64,000 bases of DNA, taken from the NCBI GenBank assembly GCA_039985655.1, contig JBDWSF010000002.1:54047-118046 (forward strand), read 5' to 3'. The notes below the pieces were generated by a model. It saw nothing but the letters and a program-made list of their open reading frames with translations. It was not told the origin of the DNA and searched no databases. The stretch's first letter is position 1, and each line of letters opens with the position of its first letter. Made by a program: the position numbers and the translations under genes. The DNA is from Algibacter sp. (GTDB lineage Bacteria > Bacteroidota > Bacteroidia > Flavobacteriales > Flavobacteriaceae). Of the stretch, positions 3,812 through 62,041 are shown in pieces.

Positions 3812-4477
3812 CTATATTGTAGTTGCTTTAGCTTTTTTATTTGGTTTAAGAAAAGAGGTGTCATAACCAGAAAACCTTTTCATGTAATAACGCACTGTAG
3901 TTCCATAACCATCAGCGAAATTATCTAAACCATAACTTCTTAAATACTTCTTTACACTTCCTGGTCCTGCTAAATGTGCTGCAGCTAAAATACCAGACTC
4001 GGTAACAACAACGCCATTTATACGTTTTCCAACAAAATTCTTAATATCTCGACGCAAAATCCATTTGTTTCTTTGTGCGTTCGCAATAAAAGCTTTTTCT
4101 TGAAGCTTAGGATTCTTTAAAAACTGATCGGTATTATTAATACCTATTAATTTTAAAGTTCCTTTTCCAAACTGGTATTTCCCTAAATACCCATAAGTAT
4201 TAACGGTAAAATAATTACCACCAGATTCTTTAAAGGCTAACGCCTCTTTAAAACCAACAAAAGATTTCCCTAAATACGGAGAAAATGTTTTGTTTCCTTC
4301 TTTAGATGCCAAAGTATTATCTTTAATACCTCCATCAAGACTTACTGTATAATTTAATACTAAGCCTTCTGTTGAATACTTACCTAGGTCTATATCTTCA
4401 TTAGATGAAAACGAAACCATTAACAATACAATAATTGTTAATGTTAGACTTAAGATACTTGTAATATTCTTTGTCAT
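3812..4477 (-). CDS. secreted or membrane-anchored hypothetical protein with an SLT-like (lytic transglycosylase-like) motif
   Basis: 221 aa with an N-terminal hydrophobic anchor. FKESGGNY...GYLGKYQFG resembles the catalytic E-S ... G-L-M-Q block of SLT domains. Confidence 0.4.
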   Translation of the reverse strand: MTKNITSILSLTLTIIVLLMVSFSSNEDIDLGKYSTEGLVLNYTVSLDGGIKDNTLASKEGNKTFSPYLGKSFVGFKEALAFKESGGNYFTVNTYGYLGKYQFGKGTLKLIGINNTDQFLKNPKLQEKAFIANAQRNKWILRRDIKNFVGKRINGVVVTESGILAAAHLAGPGSVKKYLRSYGLDNFADGYGTTVRYYMKRFSGYDTSFLKPNKKAKATTI

Positions 4478-55823: not shown

Positions 55824-56219
55824 ATGCCATTAGTAAGAATAAGTTTACCAAATAAATTCACAAAGAAAACAAAGGATGATATCTCGATTTCTGTTCATAA
55901 ATCATTGATTAAAGAATTTAATATTCCTGAAAATGATTATTTCCATATTATTGAAGAATTAGAGTCTGAGCAAATTAAATACCCAGAAAAGTATTTAGAA
56001 ATTCAACATACCTCAGATATTATTTATGTTCAAATTATTGCTGGACAAGGACGGACATTAGAACAAAAAAAGAAACTGTATCATGAAATTGCCACTCAAG
56101 TAAGTTCTTCAAGCTCAATCACCAAAAATAATGTAATAATTACACTCCTTGAAAATAACGGAAGAGAAGACTGGTCCTTTGGTAACGGAGAAATTCAAGA
56201 ACCTAAACACTTGAAATAA
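55824..56219 (+). CDS. tautomerase-superfamily protein (4-oxalocrotonate tautomerase-like, long form)
   Basis: 131 aa. It begins MPLVRISLP (an N-terminal Pro after Met removal is the catalytic hallmark) and has a beta-alpha-beta-like duplicated layout. Confidence 0.6.
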   Translation: MPLVRISLPNKFTKKTKDDISISVHKSLIKEFNIPENDYFHIIEELESEQIKYPEKYLEIQHTSDIIYVQIIAGQGRTLEQKKKLYHEIATQVSSSSSITKNNVIITLLENNGREDWSFGNGEIQEPKHLK

Positions 56220-56431
56220 ATGAAAATATCGAATATTGACAAAACATTAAACAACGTAGTGCAAGATAAAAAGTAGGCGTAAAACTTGCTTTTTTAACAG
56301 GAGATGAGGACATGTCCGTTTTTGCAATTGAGTTAAAAAGAGGTCAATTTATTCCTGCTCATTATCATAAAATAGGAATTGAAGCCTACTTTATCTTGTT
56401 TGGTGAAGGAATTGTATCAATAGGAAAATAA
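56220..56431 (+). pseudogene. cupin-domain gene relic (frameshifted and truncated)
   Basis: MKISNIDKTLNNVVQDKK* continues after a 1-nt shift as VGVKLAFLTGDEDMSVFAIELKRGQFIPAHYHKIGIEAYFILFGEGIVSIGK*. The H-x-H...E cupin motif 1 is present, but the second half of the barrel is missing. Confidence 0.5.
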
Positions 56432-56822
56432 ATAGAGAGCAATTAGTTTGAGAATACTGGGAAACACAAAAACAATTACAGTTAAAACTATAAGCTAGTA
56501 AACAGATGCGTTAAGGATTGCAGTGGAAAGCCCACAGCTCGACGAAGGAGATGCGAGGACTTGAAATGAAAAGCCTGACCCGCAGGGGAACGTCCAAATT
56601 ATTTTTACGCTCATTTTAAAACTCAAAGCATTTAAAATTCGTGGCTAAATGTTTTTCTGCACAACCAAATCAATACACATAAAAACGCTATTCTCGACAA
56701 TACCTTATAAACTTTCAAATTAATATTAGCTTTTTTAATAATATGATAATATAGAATAGGTTATATCAAAAAATGATGTGTAGTCTATTTATTCTATTTA
56801 TATTTGGGCAGATAAAAAAACA

Positions 56823-56870
56823 ATGATAAATAATAACAACACTAATAATTTCAATAATCCTAATTGCTAG
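56823..56870 (+). CDS. candidate leader peptide MINNNNTNNFNNPNC (15 codons, 9 Asn)
   Basis: The ORF runs from ATG 56823 to TAG 56868-56870, read codon by codon. It lies between a TATATTTG box (56799-56806) and the antiterminator/terminator segments upstream of the gatC-like gene. Confidence 0.45.
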   Translation: MINNNNTNNFNNPNC

Positions 56871-56935
56871 GGTTGGAAGGTTGTTGTTTAAACATATATA
56901 AATAAAGCCTTCCAAATTTTGGAAGGTTTTTTTTT
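56871..56935 (+). promoter_or_regulatory. candidate attenuator: antiterminator segment, shared middle segment and terminator
   Basis: TTGGAAGGTT occurs twice (56873-56882 and 56919-56928). Both copies are complementary to CCTTCCAA (56908-56915), so the two helices are mutually exclusive. Confidence 0.5.
56905..56935 (+). terminator. intrinsic terminator 43 nt upstream of the gatC-like start codon
   Basis: CCTTCCAA (56908-56915) pairs with TTGGAAGG (56919-56926) around a 3-nt loop. Nine consecutive T follow (56927-56935). Confidence 0.75.
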
Positions 56936-56977
56936 GAGATTGTTTTAAAGTAATCTCGCTAATCAAAAATTGAAGAC

Positions 56978-57247
56978 ATGAGTAAAATTATGACAGTCGA
57001 CATCTTGTCGAGTATTAAAGGAGCACAGCCCTCTGAGGCCGTTAGCAAATTATTTGATGTGATTAAAAATGCGCATCCAACAACTAATAATTCTTTTAAT
57101 AACGCGAATAATAATGCGGTGTCTTTATCAGATTTAAGAGATGATGTTGTTATTGAAAGTTCGGCAATAGAAAAACAAATTATTAAAGAAAACTTTCCGA
57201 ACGAAAAAAACGGATTTCTAGTCGTATCTAAAGTTATAGAAGAATAA
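56978..57247 (+). CDS. gatC: GatC-like small subunit (divergent)
   Basis: 89 aa. The C-terminal LRDDVV...NFPNEKNGFLVVSKVIEE matches the GatC tail (LREDxV ... NAP ... F-x-VP-x-VIE), but the N-terminal half is divergent. The stop lies 1 nt before the gatA ATG. Confidence 0.55.
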   Translation: MSKIMTVDILSSIKGAQPSEAVSKLFDVIKNAHPTTNNSFNNANNNAVSLSDLRDDVVIESSAIEKQIIKENFPNEKNGFLVVSKVIEE

Positions 57248-57248
57248 T

Positions 57249-58649
57249 ATGGATTCTCAAATAAAACACATACACCAGCAGTTGGTGGATAAAAAAATAA
57301 CGTGTACCGCTTTAGTACAAGGTCGATTGGATTTACTAAAACAAAATACACATAATACGGTTAATTCGCTTTTAGATACTACAGCATTAAAATTGGCTGC
57401 AAAAGTAGATGCTAAAATAGCTCATGGCGAAACTATTGGTTTGCTTGAAGGTATTCCGTTTGGAATAAAAGATGTGTATATGGTTCAAGGCACCTACACA
57501 ACAGCGAGCTCAGATTTATTAAAAAATTATAAATCGGCTTACACAGCAACGGCTATTCAAAAATTATTGGATGCTGGCGCCATTCCTTTGGTAAAAGAAA
57601 ACTGTGATAGTTTTGGTCATGGATCATCTAGTGAAAACACCATTTTTGGAGCGGTTAAAAATGCTATCAACCCCCATTTAGTTGGTGGTGGTTCTAGCGG
57701 CGGTTCTGCTGTAAACGTTGCTAAAGATTACACCGTGTTTTCTATTGGTGGCGATACTGGTGGTTCTGTGCGTCAACCCGCAGGTTACAATAATATCTAT
57801 GGTTTAAAACCGACTTACGGACGTATTTCACGTTTCGGATTAATGGCATACGCATCGTCTACAGATTGTGTTGGTCCTTTAGCAAAATCTATCGAAGATA
57901 TTAGAATTGTGCTGAATGTGATGAGTGGTAAAGATGTTAAAGATCAAACGACTTACGCTTCCGCGGAAATAAAAGATGACAGTATTTCAAATTCCGAAGG
58001 CATTAAAACAATCGGGTATTTTAAAAACTTTATTGAAAGTGACGCTATTGATGCTCAAGTTAAATCTGATTTTTTAGATGCTATTGAAAAAATAAAAGCC
58101 AAAGGCATTGAAGTGAAAGCACTCGATTTCTTAGAAGCTAATACGTTAGTTTCTACTTATTATACTTTGGCTATGGCAGAAACGGCCTCTAACCTATCGC
58201 GTTTAGATGGTACAAATTATGGTGAACGTATTGAATCTGGAACTTTAAAAGAAACTTATTCAGTAACCCGTTCTGAAAATTTCTCTGAAGAATCAAAACG
58301 CAGAATTGTTGGTGGAAACCAAGTATTATCTCAAGGTTTTTCTGATGAAATTTACCTAAAAGGATTAGCGCTTAGAGATCAAATTTCTGAGAATTTCGAA
58401 AAAGATTTTAATGAAGTTGATATTATCCTTTCGCCAGTTACACCAAGCACTCCTCCAAAAATTGGAGACAGTTTAAAAGACCCACATGCCATGTACTTAT
58501 CTGATGCCTACACGGTTGGTTTTAGCTTAGGGCAATTACCAACACTTACGGTACCACAAGGCACAGCAACTGGTTTACAAATTAGTGCTGCAAAAAATAA
58601 TGATGAACTTGTTTTGAAGTTTGCTAACTTCCTAAAAGACACGATATAA
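57249..58649 (+). CDS. gatA: amidase-signature protein, GatA-like subunit of Asp-tRNA(Asn)/Glu-tRNA(Gln) amidotransferase
   Basis: 466 aa. It has GIPFGIKD, the GGSSGGSA amidase signature, GGDTGGSVRQPA and a GatA-like N-terminal helix. Its stop overlaps the next start (TAATG). Confidence 0.85.
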   Translation: MDSQIKHIHQQLVDKKITCTALVQGRLDLLKQNTHNTVNSLLDTTALKLAAKVDAKIAHGETIGLLEGIPFGIKDVYMVQGTYTTASSDLLKNYKSAYTATAIQKLLDAGAIPLVKENCDSFGHGSSSENTIFGAVKNAINPHLVGGGSSGGSAVNVAKDYTVFSIGGDTGGSVRQPAGYNNIYGLKPTYGRISRFGLMAYASSTDCVGPLAKSIEDIRIVLNVMSGKDVKDQTTYASAEIKDDSISNSEGIKTIGYFKNFIESDAIDAQVKSDFLDAIEKIKAKGIEVKALDFLEANTLVSTYYTLAMAETASNLSRLDGTNYGERIESGTLKETYSVTRSENFSEESKRRIVGGNQVLSQGFSDEIYLKGLALRDQISENFEKDFNEVDIILSPVTPSTPPKIGDSLKDPHAMYLSDAYTVGFSLGQLPTLTVPQGTATGLQISAAKNNDELVLKFANFLKDTI

Positions 58650-61600
58650 TGGATTTAGAACAATTAAACGAAGCGCTTAAAGCTCACGAATTAGAATTGG
58701 TAATCGGAATTGAAACTCATGTCCGTTTAAATACCAAAACCAAATTATTTTGTTCTTGTCCAAATCAAGAAATTGATACACCTAACGAAAATATCTGTTC
58801 GGTGTGTACGGGACAAATGGGTGTTTTACCGTCTATTAATAAAGAAGCGATTACAAAGGCGATTTATTTTGGTAAAGCTGTTAAATCGACTTTTGAAAAC
58901 GAGACTATTTCTTGGGATCGTAAACATTACGAATATCCAGACAATCCGAAAAACATACAAATTACGCAGTTTCATAATCCTGTGATTCCTGACGGACAAG
59001 TCTCTTGTTACCGTAATGATGGGTCTCAGTTTACTGTAAACCTAACGCAGGTTCATATCGAAGAAGATGCTGCTAAATTAATGCACGAAAAGAAAACCTC
59101 TTTAGTCGATTTTAATAAAGCAGGCGTACCGCTTATTGAAATCGTTACAGAACCTTGTATTCGTCATATCGAAGATGCATCAACCTATGCACAATACATT
59201 CAGCGTATAGTCCAAAATTTAAAAATATCTGAGGCTAACCTTGAAAAAGGAGAGTTTAAATCGGATGTTTCTGTATCGCTTCGTAAAAAGCATACTTACG
59301 AATTAAATCCACGTACCGAAATTAAAAACTTAAACTCGTTTAAGTTTATGGTGGATGCTTTAAAAGAAGAAATTGAGAAACAATTAAACTACTTTTTAGA
59401 GCACAAAGAATTTAGACAAGACCAAACCACGGTTTTATGGGATGCTGAATTGAAGCAAACCAAAACCATGCGTAAAAAAGAATTTGAAGCGGATTACCGT
59501 TTTATTTCTGAACCAGATTTGCCTTTCGTAAATATTAAAGATGTTGTGGAGTCTATTGATGTCGATTTAAGCACGCTGCCTTACGCCGTTGAATCTATTT
59601 TAATTAAAGGAGGTGTATTACCGCAAGATGCTAAATTCTTTACTGCAGATTCGTTACGTTCGGAAACTTTTGTAGCTATAAATAACGAAATTAGAGATCC
59701 ATCTTTTGTTGCTAAAACATTAGTAAATAATATTGGTGCTGATGATTATGCCGATATACATAGAATAGAACATCTTATTGAAATATTCCAACTTTTTAAA
59801 GATGAAAAAATAACATCGGTTTTAGTTCAAAACGCCATTACTTCATATTTAAAAGATAGAAGTTTTGATTACAATAAATATTTTGAAGACAACACCATTT
59901 CTGAATCTCAGATTGGAGATGCTATTCAAAAAGTAATTTCAGAAAATGAAGCCGTTGCTAATGACATCAAAGGCGGCAACCAAGGAAAAGCAGGTATTCT
60001 TGTTGGGAAAGTGATTGCTATTATTGGTAAAGGTGCTTCAGGAAAAGTGATTCGTCAAGGGATTTTGGATGCGCTTGCCGGAAAAGAAGTTGGAAGCACG
60101 AAAAACGAAGCGAGCAACAGTGGCGAGCAAAAAGCAAAAGGCCAAGAGCCAAGAGCCAATGAAGAAGAAATACTTCCAGAGATTCCATTAATCATTAAAG
60201 AAGAATATCGAACACATAAAATATCCGATTTATCGGAAAGCTCAATTTCAGAAACAGTAACGCTTGCCGGTTGGGTATCTAGTGTACGTGATCATGGTGA
60301 ATTGATGTTTATTGATTTACGAGATTCTAGTAACGAGATTTTTCAAGTCCGATTAAGTAGAGAGTCTTTTGCTAATCTAGACGATCTTGTAAAGTTAAAA
60401 CCAGAATCGGTAATTACCGTTACAGGAACCGTTGTACAGCGTAAAGAAGACGATTATAATGCATCGCTTCGCGCAGGAACGATAGAATTAGAAACCTCTG
60501 ATTTAGATATCTTAAACCTATCTAAAACCTTGCCTTTCGAAATTAAAAGAGCAACAAAAACAAATGAATCTGTACGTTTTCAATATAAATATCTAGATCA
60601 TAGAAATGATGATGTTCGTAGAGCCATGATCAATCGTCACAAAGTGATTAAATTGATGCGTGATATTTTAGACGATCAAGAATTTATAGAAGTAGAAACA
60701 CCAATATTAACTGCTGGTACTGATGAAGGTGCTAGAGAATTTATTGTACCTACGCGTAAAAAAGCGGGATCTTTCTATACATTACCACAAGCACCTCAAC
60801 AATTCAAACAAATTTTGATGGTGTCTGGGTATGAGAAATATTTCCAAATAGCGCGTTGTTTTAGAGATGAAGATTCTCGTGGCGATCGTCAACCAGAATT
60901 CACACAATTAGATATTGAAATGGCGTACGCCAGTATGCAACAAATTATAGATTTGAACACCACCATGTTCAATGACATTGTTAAGAAAATATACGGCAAA
61001 AAATGGATTTTACATCCGTTTGAAGTCATTACCTATAAAGATGCGATGGATAAATATGGTTGTGATAGACCAGATTTACGTTTCGGATTACAAATGCAAG
61101 ACATTACTGAAATTGTAAAAGAAACAACCTTCCAAGTATTTAGTAAACCTATAGACGATGGTGGAATTGTAAAATGCATCAAAGTATCCAAAGAGGAACA
61201 AGGTAAAAAGCGTTTATCTAAAGGTCAGATTGAAAAATTGACAGCTACGGCACAACAACATGGCTTAGGTGGTTTAGCTTATATTATTGTTAATGAAAAC
61301 GATTTACAATCACCAATCATTAAATTTTTAGGTGAAGACATTGCTTCTGGAATTATTACTGCAACAAACGCGCAAGTTGGAGATATTGTATTCTTTTCTG
61401 CTGCCGATTATGACACAGCTAATAAAGCGTTAGATGCTGTTAGACAAGAATTAGGTGCGATGCTTAGATTAATTAATCCAAAGGAGTTAAGACCTGCTTG
61501 GGTTGTAGATTTCCCAATGTTTGAAAAAACAGACGAAGGCCGTTGGACATTTACTCATAATCCGTTCTCTATGCCTGCAACATATGATATTGATAAACAT

Positions 61601-61987
61601 ATGAATGGTAAAGAAGACGAAATAGGAAGTATAATCGCGCAACAATACGATTTAATATTAAACGGTTTCGAAATTGGTGGAGGTTCTGTCCGTGCTCACA
61701 AACCTGAAATTCTTGAAGCGACCTATAAGAATATGGGTTACAATAAAGCGGAGATGCTTAGAAGTGTTGGTACCATGTACGAAGCATTCCATTACGGCGC
61801 ACCACCACACGGGGGTATTGCTTGGGGTGTAGATCGATTAATGATGATTTTAGAGAAAAAAGCATCTATTAGAGAAGTGATGGCTTTCCCAAAAACTGGA
61901 ACTAGTGAAGATTTATTATTTGGCTCTCCTTCACCGCTCTCAGATAAAAAAATTGAAGAAATGAATGTTAGAGTGATTAGAAAATAG
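58649..61987 (+). CDS. fusion protein: GatB-like amidotransferase subunit (about aa 1-475) + linker + complete bacterial-type aspartyl-tRNA synthetase (about aa 520-1112)
   Basis: The GatB blocks are VIGIETHVRLNT.TKLFC, DRKHYEYPDNPKNIQITQ, HIEEDAAK, GVPLIEIVTEP, EIKNLNSF, ADYRFISEPDLP and a YqeY-like tail. A low-complexity linker follows (GSTKNEASNSGEQKAKGQEPRANEEE). The AspRS blocks are the OB-fold (LAGWVSSVRDHGELMFIDLRD), QAPQQFKQ, motif 2 (FQIARCFRDEDSRGDRQPEFTQLDIEM), a GAD insertion and motif 3 (GGGSVRAH ... GIAWGVDRL). It is one uninterrupted 1112-codon frame. Confidence 0.9.
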   Translation: MDLEQLNEALKAHELELVIGIETHVRLNTKTKLFCSCPNQEIDTPNENICSVCTGQMGVLPSINKEAITKAIYFGKAVKSTFENETISWDRKHYEYPDNPKNIQITQFHNPVIPDGQVSCYRNDGSQFTVNLTQVHIEEDAAKLMHEKKTSLVDFNKAGVPLIEIVTEPCIRHIEDASTYAQYIQRIVQNLKISEANLEKGEFKSDVSVSLRKKHTYELNPRTEIKNLNSFKFMVDALKEEIEKQLNYFLEHKEFRQDQTTVLWDAELKQTKTMRKKEFEADYRFISEPDLPFVNIKDVVESIDVDLSTLPYAVESILIKGGVLPQDAKFFTADSLRSETFVAINNEIRDPSFVAKTLVNNIGADDYADIHRIEHLIEIFQLFKDEKITSVLVQNAITSYLKDRSFDYNKYFEDNTISESQIGDAIQKVISENEAVANDIKGGNQGKAGILVGKVIAIIGKGASGKVIRQGILDALAGKEVGSTKNEASNSGEQKAKGQEPRANEEEILPEIPLIIKEEYRTHKISDLSESSISETVTLAGWVSSVRDHGELMFIDLRDSSNEIFQVRLSRESFANLDDLVKLKPESVITVTGTVVQRKEDDYNASLRAGTIELETSDLDILNLSKTLPFEIKRATKTNESVRFQYKYLDHRNDDVRRAMINRHKVIKLMRDILDDQEFIEVETPILTAGTDEGAREFIVPTRKKAGSFYTLPQAPQQFKQILMVSGYEKYFQIARCFRDEDSRGDRQPEFTQLDIEMAYASMQQIIDLNTTMFNDIVKKIYGKKWILHPFEVITYKDAMDKYGCDRPDLRFGLQMQDITEIVKETTFQVFSKPIDDGGIVKCIKVSKEEQGKKRLSKGQIEKLTATAQQHGLGGLAYIIVNENDLQSPIIKFLGEDIASGIITATNAQVGDIVFFSAADYDTANKALDAVRQELGAMLRLINPKELRPAWVVDFPMFEKTDEGRWTFTHNPFSMPATYDIDKHMNGKEDEIGSIIAQQYDLILNGFEIGGGSVRAHKPEILEATYKNMGYNKAEMLRSVGTMYEAFHYGAPPHGGIAWGVDRLMMILEKKASIREVMAFPKTGTSEDLLFGSPSPLSDKKIEEMNVRVIRK

Positions 61988-62012
61988 ATATATTTCTCTT
62001 ATAAAAAACAAA

Positions 62013-62041
62013 AGCTTCAGATCACTCTGGAGTTTTTTGTT
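62013..62041 (+). terminator. probable intrinsic terminator after the gatB-aspS fusion gene
   Basis: AGCTTCAG-loop-CTGGAGTT forms a stem with one G-U pair, followed by a T-run (TTTTTTGTTTT). Confidence 0.55.

Follow-up and report, generated by a model that had tools for sequence, protein, structure and literature searches.

What controls the gatC-gatA-gatB::aspS operon of Flavobacteriaceae, and does a short open reading frame (ORF) made up largely of asparagine (Asn) codons just upstream of it take part in this control? The question arises from a 64,000-nt stretch of an Algibacter metagenome-assembled genome (MAG; GCA_039985655.1, contig JBDWSF010000002.1, positions 54,047-118,046 of the forward strand), hereafter the window, to which coordinates refer unless another locus is named and on whose plus strand the leader elements and operon genes are located. 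An initial annotation had proposed that the ORF belongs to a leader with mutually exclusive antiterminator and terminator hairpins, and re-reading of positions 56400-57400 reproduced its coordinates for the ORF, the repeats, the complementary segment, the nine T and the putative -7 box. We consider it highly probable (roughly 85%) that this leader is a ribosome-mediated transcription attenuator that senses Asn-tRNA(Asn) and controls gatC-gatA-gatB::aspS.

The leader ORF (56823-56870; ATG 56823-56825, TAG 56868-56870) encodes the peptide MINNNNTNNFNNPNC and consists of the codons ATG ATA AAT AAT AAC AAC ACT AAT AAT TTC AAT AAT CCT AAT TGC TAG, with nine Asn codons (seven AAT and two AAC) among its 15 codons. 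It is the only ATG-initiated ORF of up to 30 codons with five or more Asn codons on either strand of the window. Chance formation in AT-rich intergenic sequence, a concern raised from the start, is a poor explanation, as only 0.01 ORFs with nine or more Asn codons are expected per 64 kb of first-order Markov sequence of intergenic composition. The stop codon is directly followed by GGTTGGAAGGTT (56871-56882); a second copy of TTGGAAGGTT is located at 56919-56928, the complementary CCTTCCAA at 56908-56915 and a run of nine T at 56927-56935.

In the RNA, these elements are arranged in four segments. Segment 1 (56827-56862) lies within the 3' two-thirds of the ORF and contains Asn codons (56827-56837), UUUC (56849-56852) and UAAUCCUA (56855-56862). 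Segment 2 (56868-56890) comprises the stop codon UAG and GGUU, followed by GGAAGGUU and GUUGUUU, and can pair with either segment 1 or segment 3. Segment 3 (AAAUAAAGCCUUCCAA, 56899-56915; AGCCUUCC in the attenuation model) is the strand common to antiterminator and terminator, and segment 4 (UUGGAAGG and the U9 tract, 56919-56935) provides the terminator 3' arm, with its GGAAGG, and the U-tail. The intrinsic terminator recognized upstream of gatC was recovered by a terminator scan as a 12-pair stem (56904-56930) followed by the T-run, and is predicted to fold at -14.0 kcal/mol (z = -3.95). The competing antiterminator (56873-56882 paired with 56906-56915, plus an inner helix of 56884-56890 with 56899-56905) is predicted at -16.7 kcal/mol (z = -3.43). 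For the leader in its entirety the predicted energy is -28.3 kcal/mol (z = -3.36), a value reached by none of 200 shuffled sequences. In this full fold, UAAUCCUA (56855-56862) pairs with UAGGGUUG (56868-56875), UUUC (56849-56852) with GAAG of the segment-2 GGAAGG (56876-56879), and the Asn codons at 56827-56837 with GUUGUUGUUUA (56880-56890). This hairpin of leader ORF and segment 2, which the initial annotation did not describe, is in the folding model a '1:2' anti-antiterminator, and the locus therefore displays the complete four-segment layout of a trp attenuator. As judged from the sequence, the locus combines the elements of this class, i.e. a short Asn-rich ORF, an intrinsic terminator before gatC, a mutually exclusive antiterminator sharing the terminator 5' arm, an anti-antiterminator involving the ORF, and a stop codon apparently positioned to mask segment 2.

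In the proposed mechanism, transcription would start about 12 nt upstream of the 15-codon ORF, and the four RNA segments would follow. When Asn-tRNA(Asn) is plentiful, the ribosome would run to the UAG and cover the segment-2 GGAAGG, upon which segments 3 and 4 would pair and RNA polymerase would terminate; if the leader is not translated, the 1:2 hairpin would sequester segment 2, likewise leading to termination. When Asn-tRNA(Asn) is scarce, a ribosome stalled on the Asn codons would melt the 1:2 hairpin, cover segment 1 and leave GGAAGGUU free, which would allow the 2:3 antiterminator to form and the operon to be read through. The masking of segment 2 by a terminating ribosome, as originally suggested, is geometrically plausible: if positions are counted from the first stop-codon base, GGAAGG lies at approximately +8 to +13, which is within the mRNA footprint of a bacterial ribosome with the stop codon in its A site. 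As a leader of Asn codons in front of an operon for Asn synthesis, the element would be the exact analogue of a biosynthetic-operon attenuator.

To place the window among its relatives, one genome per species was scanned, which yielded 80 loci of approximately 11 kb, each encoding a full-length GatB::AspRS fusion (82-94% identity) and derived from at least 15 genera (Algibacter, Flavivirga, Tamlana, Mariniflexile, Polaribacter, Confluentibacter, Aestuariibaculum, Flavobacterium, Lutibacter and others); 78 of the 80 include gatC together with the sequence preceding it. The leader unit, consisting of a TAnnTTTG box, an Asn-rich ORF and the GGAAGG/CCUUCC/GGAAGG array with a U-tract directly upstream of gatC, was directly observed in 43 of these 78 loci (about 15 genera) and, by an exact-pattern scan, in 53 metagenome contigs. 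The 43 loci and the window are referred to as the 44 leader loci, and the total amounts to 97 copies; the leader is thus shared by many marine Flavobacteriaceae. The expectation that orthologous loci would keep the short ORF, its Asn enrichment and the three pairing segments was borne out in these copies, and every comparative test suggested by the initial annotation spoke for its proposal; 35 loci lack the leader. The motif GGRAGG-N(10-45)-CCTTCC-N(3-12)-GGRRRG-T(4+) is found a single time in each of the 44 leader loci and on neither strand of the other 36 loci (~11 kb each). Among the metagenome copies, gatC follows the leader at a distance of 62-263 nt in 51 of 53; of the two exceptions, one contig ends after 43 nt and the other, of low coverage (L115), looks chimeric. 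No leader was found before other genes in the metagenome pattern scan, whose family-specific pattern would miss divergent Asn leaders. A covariance model built on the terminator-state structure, which was used to realign all copies, scored all 97 at 71-127 bits, compared with 42 bits for the best other match in 0.9 Mb.

The homologous leader ORFs (77 distinct sequences) are 14-17 codons long and contain 6-11 Asn codons each. Asn accounts for 670 of their 1144 residues (59%), whereas Asp and Glu are absent and Gln occurs once. In the 43 genome loci and the window the ORF follows the pattern M-x(1-3)-(N)n-F-N-N-P/S-x-x-TAG at 71-191 nt upstream of gatC, a typical leader peptide being M-x-(Asn)5-8-F-N-N-P-N-x-UAG. 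The length of the Asn run differs between species by whole codons, and the codons TTC AAT AAT CCT following it are nearly fixed at synonymous sites (AAT AAT after TTC in 44/44 and TTC in 42/44). The stop codon is TAG in 76 of the 77 distinct leaders and is separated from GGRAGG by 2-5 nt (mostly 4) in 73; in the remaining four, which are the 17-codon variants, it overlaps GGRAGG. Longer versions of the leader peptide starting at an upstream ATG had no entry in the protein collection. These data bear on the simplest alternative, namely that an AAT microsatellite happens to lie beside an ordinary terminator, a reading in keeping with the 30% G+C content of the region and with the whole-codon variation of the Asn run. 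The run is not free to vary like a degenerate repeat, as the ATG, the TAG and the gap between stop codon and GGAAGG are kept. With only about 0.01 such ORFs expected per 64 kb, and 97 homologous copies preserving start, stop, spacing and the three complementary segments, chance low complexity is refuted in practice and we give it next to no weight.

The pairings were evaluated on a model-guided alignment of 78 distinct rows, against shuffles (n = 500) and slid pairings; this alignment is fitted to the structure, and the pairing and covariation numbers obtained from it lean towards that structure. An earlier MAFFT alignment had misplaced the terminator 3' arm, and RNAalifold applied to that version recovered only the stop-codon hairpin and the antiterminator. 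Mean folding energies of the 44 leaders were -12.7 (1:2), -12.3 (2:3) and -16.3 kcal/mol (3:4). Compensatory changes, which the initial annotation had named as a check on the proposed structures, were directly observed in the terminator and also in the 1:2 hairpin, whereas the antiterminator is marked by invariance and complementarity only. For 1:2 and 3:4 jointly, 95.4% of alignment cells are paired (43-62% in slid controls), and 10 pairs have changed on both sides, compared with 3.2 +/- 1.0 in the shuffles, none of which (0/500) reached 10. Individually, the two helices of the 1:2 hairpin are paired in 96.3% and 89.3% of cells, and the terminator helix (helix 3) in 98.2%. Of the 11 pairs in this terminator helix, 7 have changed on both sides. 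Its innermost pair is A-U in 46, G-C in 18 and a wobble in two sequences, and the G-C pair adjoining CCUUCC turns into A-U in six distinct sequences. The terminator U-tract comprises 6-9 U in the 44 loci.

Independent per-sequence folds of the 44 loci agree with the statistics of the model-guided alignment. In these folds, the third base of an Asn codon covaries with the R of GUURUUGUU (U-A 27, C-G 10, U-G 7), so that synonymous AAU/AAC changes in the ORF pair with A/G changes in segment 2. The stop-codon hairpin CCUA:UAGG is likewise replaced by a compensatory UCUA:UAGA in L013 and by a U-G pair in L057. The near-invariance of TAG and the near-fixation of synonymous sites after the Asn run can therefore be attributed to the 1:2 pairing. 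This has consequences for two other explanations. One treats the ORF as a small gene in its own right that ends in a separate terminator and yields a functional Asn-rich peptide, the upstream GGAAGG taking no part in switching; it would account for the highly conserved peptide C-terminus F-N-N-P-N-[FLC], and leader peptides that act in trans do exist, e.g. peTrpL (PMC7298713). Yet the almost invariant synonymous sites in the 3' half of the ORF point to constraint on the RNA rather than on the peptide, the same bases pair with segment 2 with covariation, segment 2 is invariant despite lying outside both the ORF and the terminator, and the element was never found away from gatC in the loci and contigs scanned, which together make a separate peptide gene highly improbable. 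The second explanation retains attenuation but assigns the sensing to termination or general translation capacity, for example release factor 1 (RF1) activity at the UAG, in line with the presence of UAG in 76 of 77 leaders and its distance of 2-5 nt to the antiterminator arm. Pairing with CCUA, including the compensatory UCUA:UAGA of L013, however, accounts for the constancy of UAG, and sensing of termination leaves the 6-11 Asn codons per ORF (59% of residues) unexplained; we judge it, too, to be highly improbable next to a sensor of Asn-tRNA(Asn).

The antiterminator helix (2:3, 8 bp) is paired in 99.2% of cells, compared with 30-75% when slid. CCUUCC of segment 3 is invariant in 96 of 96 intact copies and GGRAGGUU of segment 2 is present in all 96, while the two partners of CCUUCC independently gain only A-to-G changes, which keep G-U pairs. 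This is what one would expect of a strand that alternates between two partners; it is not proof of covariation. Among the 96 copies, none combines a change in segment 3 with changes in its two partners, and such triple covariation is absent because CCUUCC is invariant.

The lack of covariation in the antiterminator would also suit a scenario in which a ligand, a protein or a tRNA binds the RNA directly and flips the hairpins, with translation of the ORF being incidental. A precedent is the aspS2-gatCAB operon of Clostridium acetobutylicum, which, as cited in PMC4206432, is controlled by a tRNA(Asn)-binding T-box. However, no Rfam family, T-box included, reaches its threshold, the structure consists of simple A/U-rich helices without a conserved multi-helix pocket, and the copies preserve the start codon, the Asn codons in frame with it, the TAG and the fixed spacing from there to GGAAGG, features that only a ribosome sensor would need. 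We therefore regard direct binding as very unlikely, and retain the ribosome as the probable sensor. Nothing in the window reaches an Rfam gathering score. A permissive search returned only sub-threshold matches to Phe_leader (RF01859; 28.3 bits), Thr_leader (RF00506; 26.2 bits; gathering score 55 for both) and small RNAs, which reflect the generic shape of a hairpin followed by a U-tract, the likeness to the two leader families being one of architecture only. For the T-box, no match was obtained in 56200-57100 even at E <= 10.

An attenuator of this class also needs its ORF near the 5' end of the transcript. The sequence TATATTTG (56799-56806), proposed earlier as a possible -7 element, corresponds to the Bacteroidetes sigma-A -7 box (TAnnTTTG), and all 44 leader loci carry this motif ahead of the ATG, at a distance of 10-19 nt in 42 of them (modal distance 17 nt). 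Further upstream, an A-run with TRGTG (56768-56780, approximately -43 to -31; consensus aAAAAatagTg in the 44 loci aligned on the -7 box) might represent a -33 region, a role suggested by its position only. Because the sigma-A TAnnTTTG box sits at -12 to -5 in the transcription start site map of Flavobacterium psychrophilum (PMC9723704), the transcription start is predicted near 56811, which would result in a 5' untranslated region of approximately 12 nt and, as far as the start can be predicted from the box, place the leader ORF at the 5' end of the transcript. The same study (PMC9723704) also describes signals of leader-peptide attenuation in front of operons for amino acids. About 210 nt upstream of the leader promoter, 56489-56584 (+) contains the window's single match to the Flavo-1 RNA (RF01705), which covers the whole model and remains below threshold (26.8 bits versus a gathering score of 42; E = 6e-4 over 201 nt).

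Two side observations concern the region between the terminator and gatC. In the window, a small additional hairpin of 8 bp (GAGAUUGU...AUAAUCUC-like, 56935-56958) separates the U-tract from gatC; L008 and L012 have it too, L004 and L018 have variants of it, and most leaders lack it. Two other leader-bearing loci, L013 (~2200-2290 of that locus) and L128 (~4100-4170), carry an insertion between terminator and gatC with GCCCCACCCGRAATT...AATTYCGACCTCCCC, which looks like a small repeat or mobile element.

The assignment of the downstream genes as gatC-gatA-gatB::aspS proved right by Pfam and NCBIfam domains, with only a weak match for GatC. The first structural gene (56978-57247) encodes a divergent GatC-like subunit of 89 aa, whose C-terminal 36-44 residues weakly match TIGR00135 (E = 0.002) and PDB entry 3h0l_C (Aquifex GatC; E = 0.61); it has no Pfam match and is annotated by NCBI as a 'hypothetical protein', and is found directly upstream of gatA in 78 of the 80 loci (67-94% identity). 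A likeness of its residues 6-40 (56993-57097) to transcription activator-like effector (TALE) repeats in a PDB profile search (3ugm_A, E = 3.7e-12) was rejected, as no single repeat is significant (best i-E = 250) and the summed score probably owes its size to the target having 20-odd repeats. Residues 35-47 of the GatC-like protein (57080-57120) form a conserved Asn-rich stretch, TNNNSFNNxxNN, which resembles the leader peptide NNNNFNNPN; a low-complexity coincidence, a second Asn-sensitive site and an evolutionary source of the leader are all possible. The amidase subunit gatA (57249-58649) matches Pfam Amidase with E = 1.4e-110 and TIGR00132 with 425.6 bits, which is below the cut-off of 481.1 bits. 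The third gene, gatB::aspS (58649-61987), encodes a protein of 1112 aa with GatB_N and GatB_Yqey followed by the OB, class II core and GAD domains, a domain order that identifies it as a covalent fusion of GatB and a bacterial-type AspRS; it is 100% identical to the NCBI entry 'bifunctional amidotransferase subunit GatB/aspartate--tRNA ligase AspS [Algibacter sp.]' of an Algibacter MAG. The operon is closed at its 3' end by a terminator-like hairpin (62010-62037), and its neighbourhood is ordinary chromosome, including sucC-like, secDF, mdh and gyrB genes and a tautomerase. The GatB::AspRS fusion is encoded in at least 15 genera, Flavobacterium and Polaribacter among them, and, judging by its domains, amounts to a covalent transamidosome. 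The fusion has been named by NCBI, and no paper discussing it was found in the literature searched.

The gene content of Flavobacteriaceae provides a possible physiological context for this operon. According to Table S1 of PMC4206432, Polaribacter sp. MED152 has neither asnA nor asnB and one copy each of gatCAB, aspS, asnS and glnS, whereas F. branchiophilum, Cellulophaga, Zobellia, Gramella, Lacinutrix, Maribacter and Krokinobacter have no asnA, at least one asnB, no gatCAB, and one copy each of aspS, asnS and glnS; in this table, Flavobacteriaceae with asnB have no gatCAB. Every Polaribacter locus recovered in our scan carries the fused operon, and from this and the absence of asnA and asnB in MED152 we infer that the operon replaces asparagine synthetase and is likely the sole route of Asn synthesis in such genomes. 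A role of GatCAB in Gln-tRNA formation would be unnecessary because GlnRS is present, and the leader ORFs, with no Glu codon and a single Gln codon, likewise suggest that GatCAB functions here for Asn and not for Gln. The fused AspRS may also be the only AspRS.

Most of the loci without the leader share a different upstream region. Of these 35 loci, 32, together with the near-variant L037, carry the sequence AAAACTTTyGTAATTTTGCCnnCTTAAAAGTTT approximately 45 nt upstream of the gatC ATG (e.g. L003, L005, L017, L025, L031 and L072-L080, among others). This cassette, which is absent from the window, consists of a 7-bp inverted repeat (AAACTTT/AAAGTTT) around a TAnnTTTG -7 box, and by its sequence looks like a promoter with an operator. 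On a GatA tree, leader-type and inverted-repeat-type loci interleave within Polaribacter, Tamlana, Mariniflexile and Algibacter, and the 5' control region therefore appears to have been swapped repeatedly.

Several points weigh against an Asn-sensing attenuator and have to be set beside the evidence given above. The case is built on sequence comparison and folding; the transcription start, translation of the leader, the reach of the ribosome on the mRNA and the Asn response are predictions. The leader is missing in 35 of 78 loci, i.e. in approximately 45% of the related species. The antiterminator helix has no pair that changed on both sides and is backed by invariance and complementarity only. 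Conservation of the reading frame is weaker proof of translation than it appears, since slippage within an AAT repeat alone keeps the frame. The joint absence of asnA and asnB, together with a single aspS, is known from the literature for Polaribacter sp. MED152 only, a genome other than that of the window. Finally, if the fused AspRS is the sole AspRS, control by Asn alone must leak enough to supply Asp-tRNA(Asp), and no second promoter was found for the operon.

Leader-peptide attenuators of amino-acid operons are textbook, and in the pheST operon of Escherichia coli the pheM leader attenuator controls an aminoacyl-tRNA synthetase operon. The Flavobacteriaceae leader would share with pheST the attenuation of a synthetase operon through a leader peptide; it differs in that the pheM codons match the synthetase's own Phe, whereas here AspRS would be placed under codons for Asn, the final product of a two-step pathway. 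With the trpL, hisL, thrL, leuL and pheL leaders of Proteobacteria and the Bacteroid-trp leader motif known in Bacteroidetes (Weinberg 2010, PMC2864571), it has in common a short ORF enriched in codons of the end product, overlapping 1:2, 2:3 and 3:4 hairpins, an intrinsic terminator shortly before the first gene of the operon, and a stop codon at which a terminating ribosome masks segment 2. In contrast to these leaders, to which it shows no sequence relationship, it would sense Asn, and its target is tRNA-dependent transamidation together with an aminoacyl-tRNA synthetase instead of a pathway for a free amino acid. In C. acetobutylicum, a T-box (NT-box) ahead of the ND-AspRS/GatCAB operon has the same regulatory logic and target (Saad et al. 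2012, as cited in PMC4206432 and PMC4574755); this Firmicutes element differs in that it binds the uncharged tRNA itself and needs neither a ribosome nor an ORF. With a ribosome as the sensor, the response would depend solely on Asn-tRNA(Asn) that can be used in decoding and not on charging as such. Concerning the regulated genes rather than the leader, a physical link between AspRS and the amidotransferase is also present in the transamidosome, the ND-AspRS:GatCAB:tRNA(Asn) complex of Thermus and Helicobacter (PMC3367201), and in the AspRS/GatC fusion NF009460 of NCBIfam; here, the link is a covalent one between GatB and AspRS.

The initial annotation knew of no Asn-specific leader peptide and of no attenuator of gatCAB or aspS, and neither was found in Rfam 15 or in the searched full-text literature, which lacks most subscription-journal papers. 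Nor was a case described in the literature searched of leader-peptide control over tRNA-dependent amino-acid synthesis, i.e. over an amidotransferase and a non-cognate aminoacyl-tRNA synthetase. While the mechanism is known, the sensed amino acid and the target pathway would thus be new. We further suggest, tentatively and with less than even confidence, that in the many Flavobacteriaceae in which a fused transamidosome replaces asparagine synthetase, the leader is the one feedback device governing the only route to Asn and, with it, the only AspRS, reading the Asn-tRNA(Asn) that EF-Tu can deliver, and that it is a module repeatedly exchanged with an unrelated, operator-like promoter cassette.

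If true, this leader would distinguish the amidated product from 'charged tRNA', a distinction that is invisible to the clostridial T-box. The compact unit of approximately 115 nt is a candidate Asn-responsive switch for Bacteroidota, for which few regulatory parts are known, and the different promoter cassette at the same operon in about half of the sister species constitutes a natural experiment. The leader also supports the idea that GatCAB is retained for asparagine synthesis in bacteria that possess AsnRS as well as GlnRS, and with it asparagine would join the few amino acids known to be sensed by leader-peptide attenuation.

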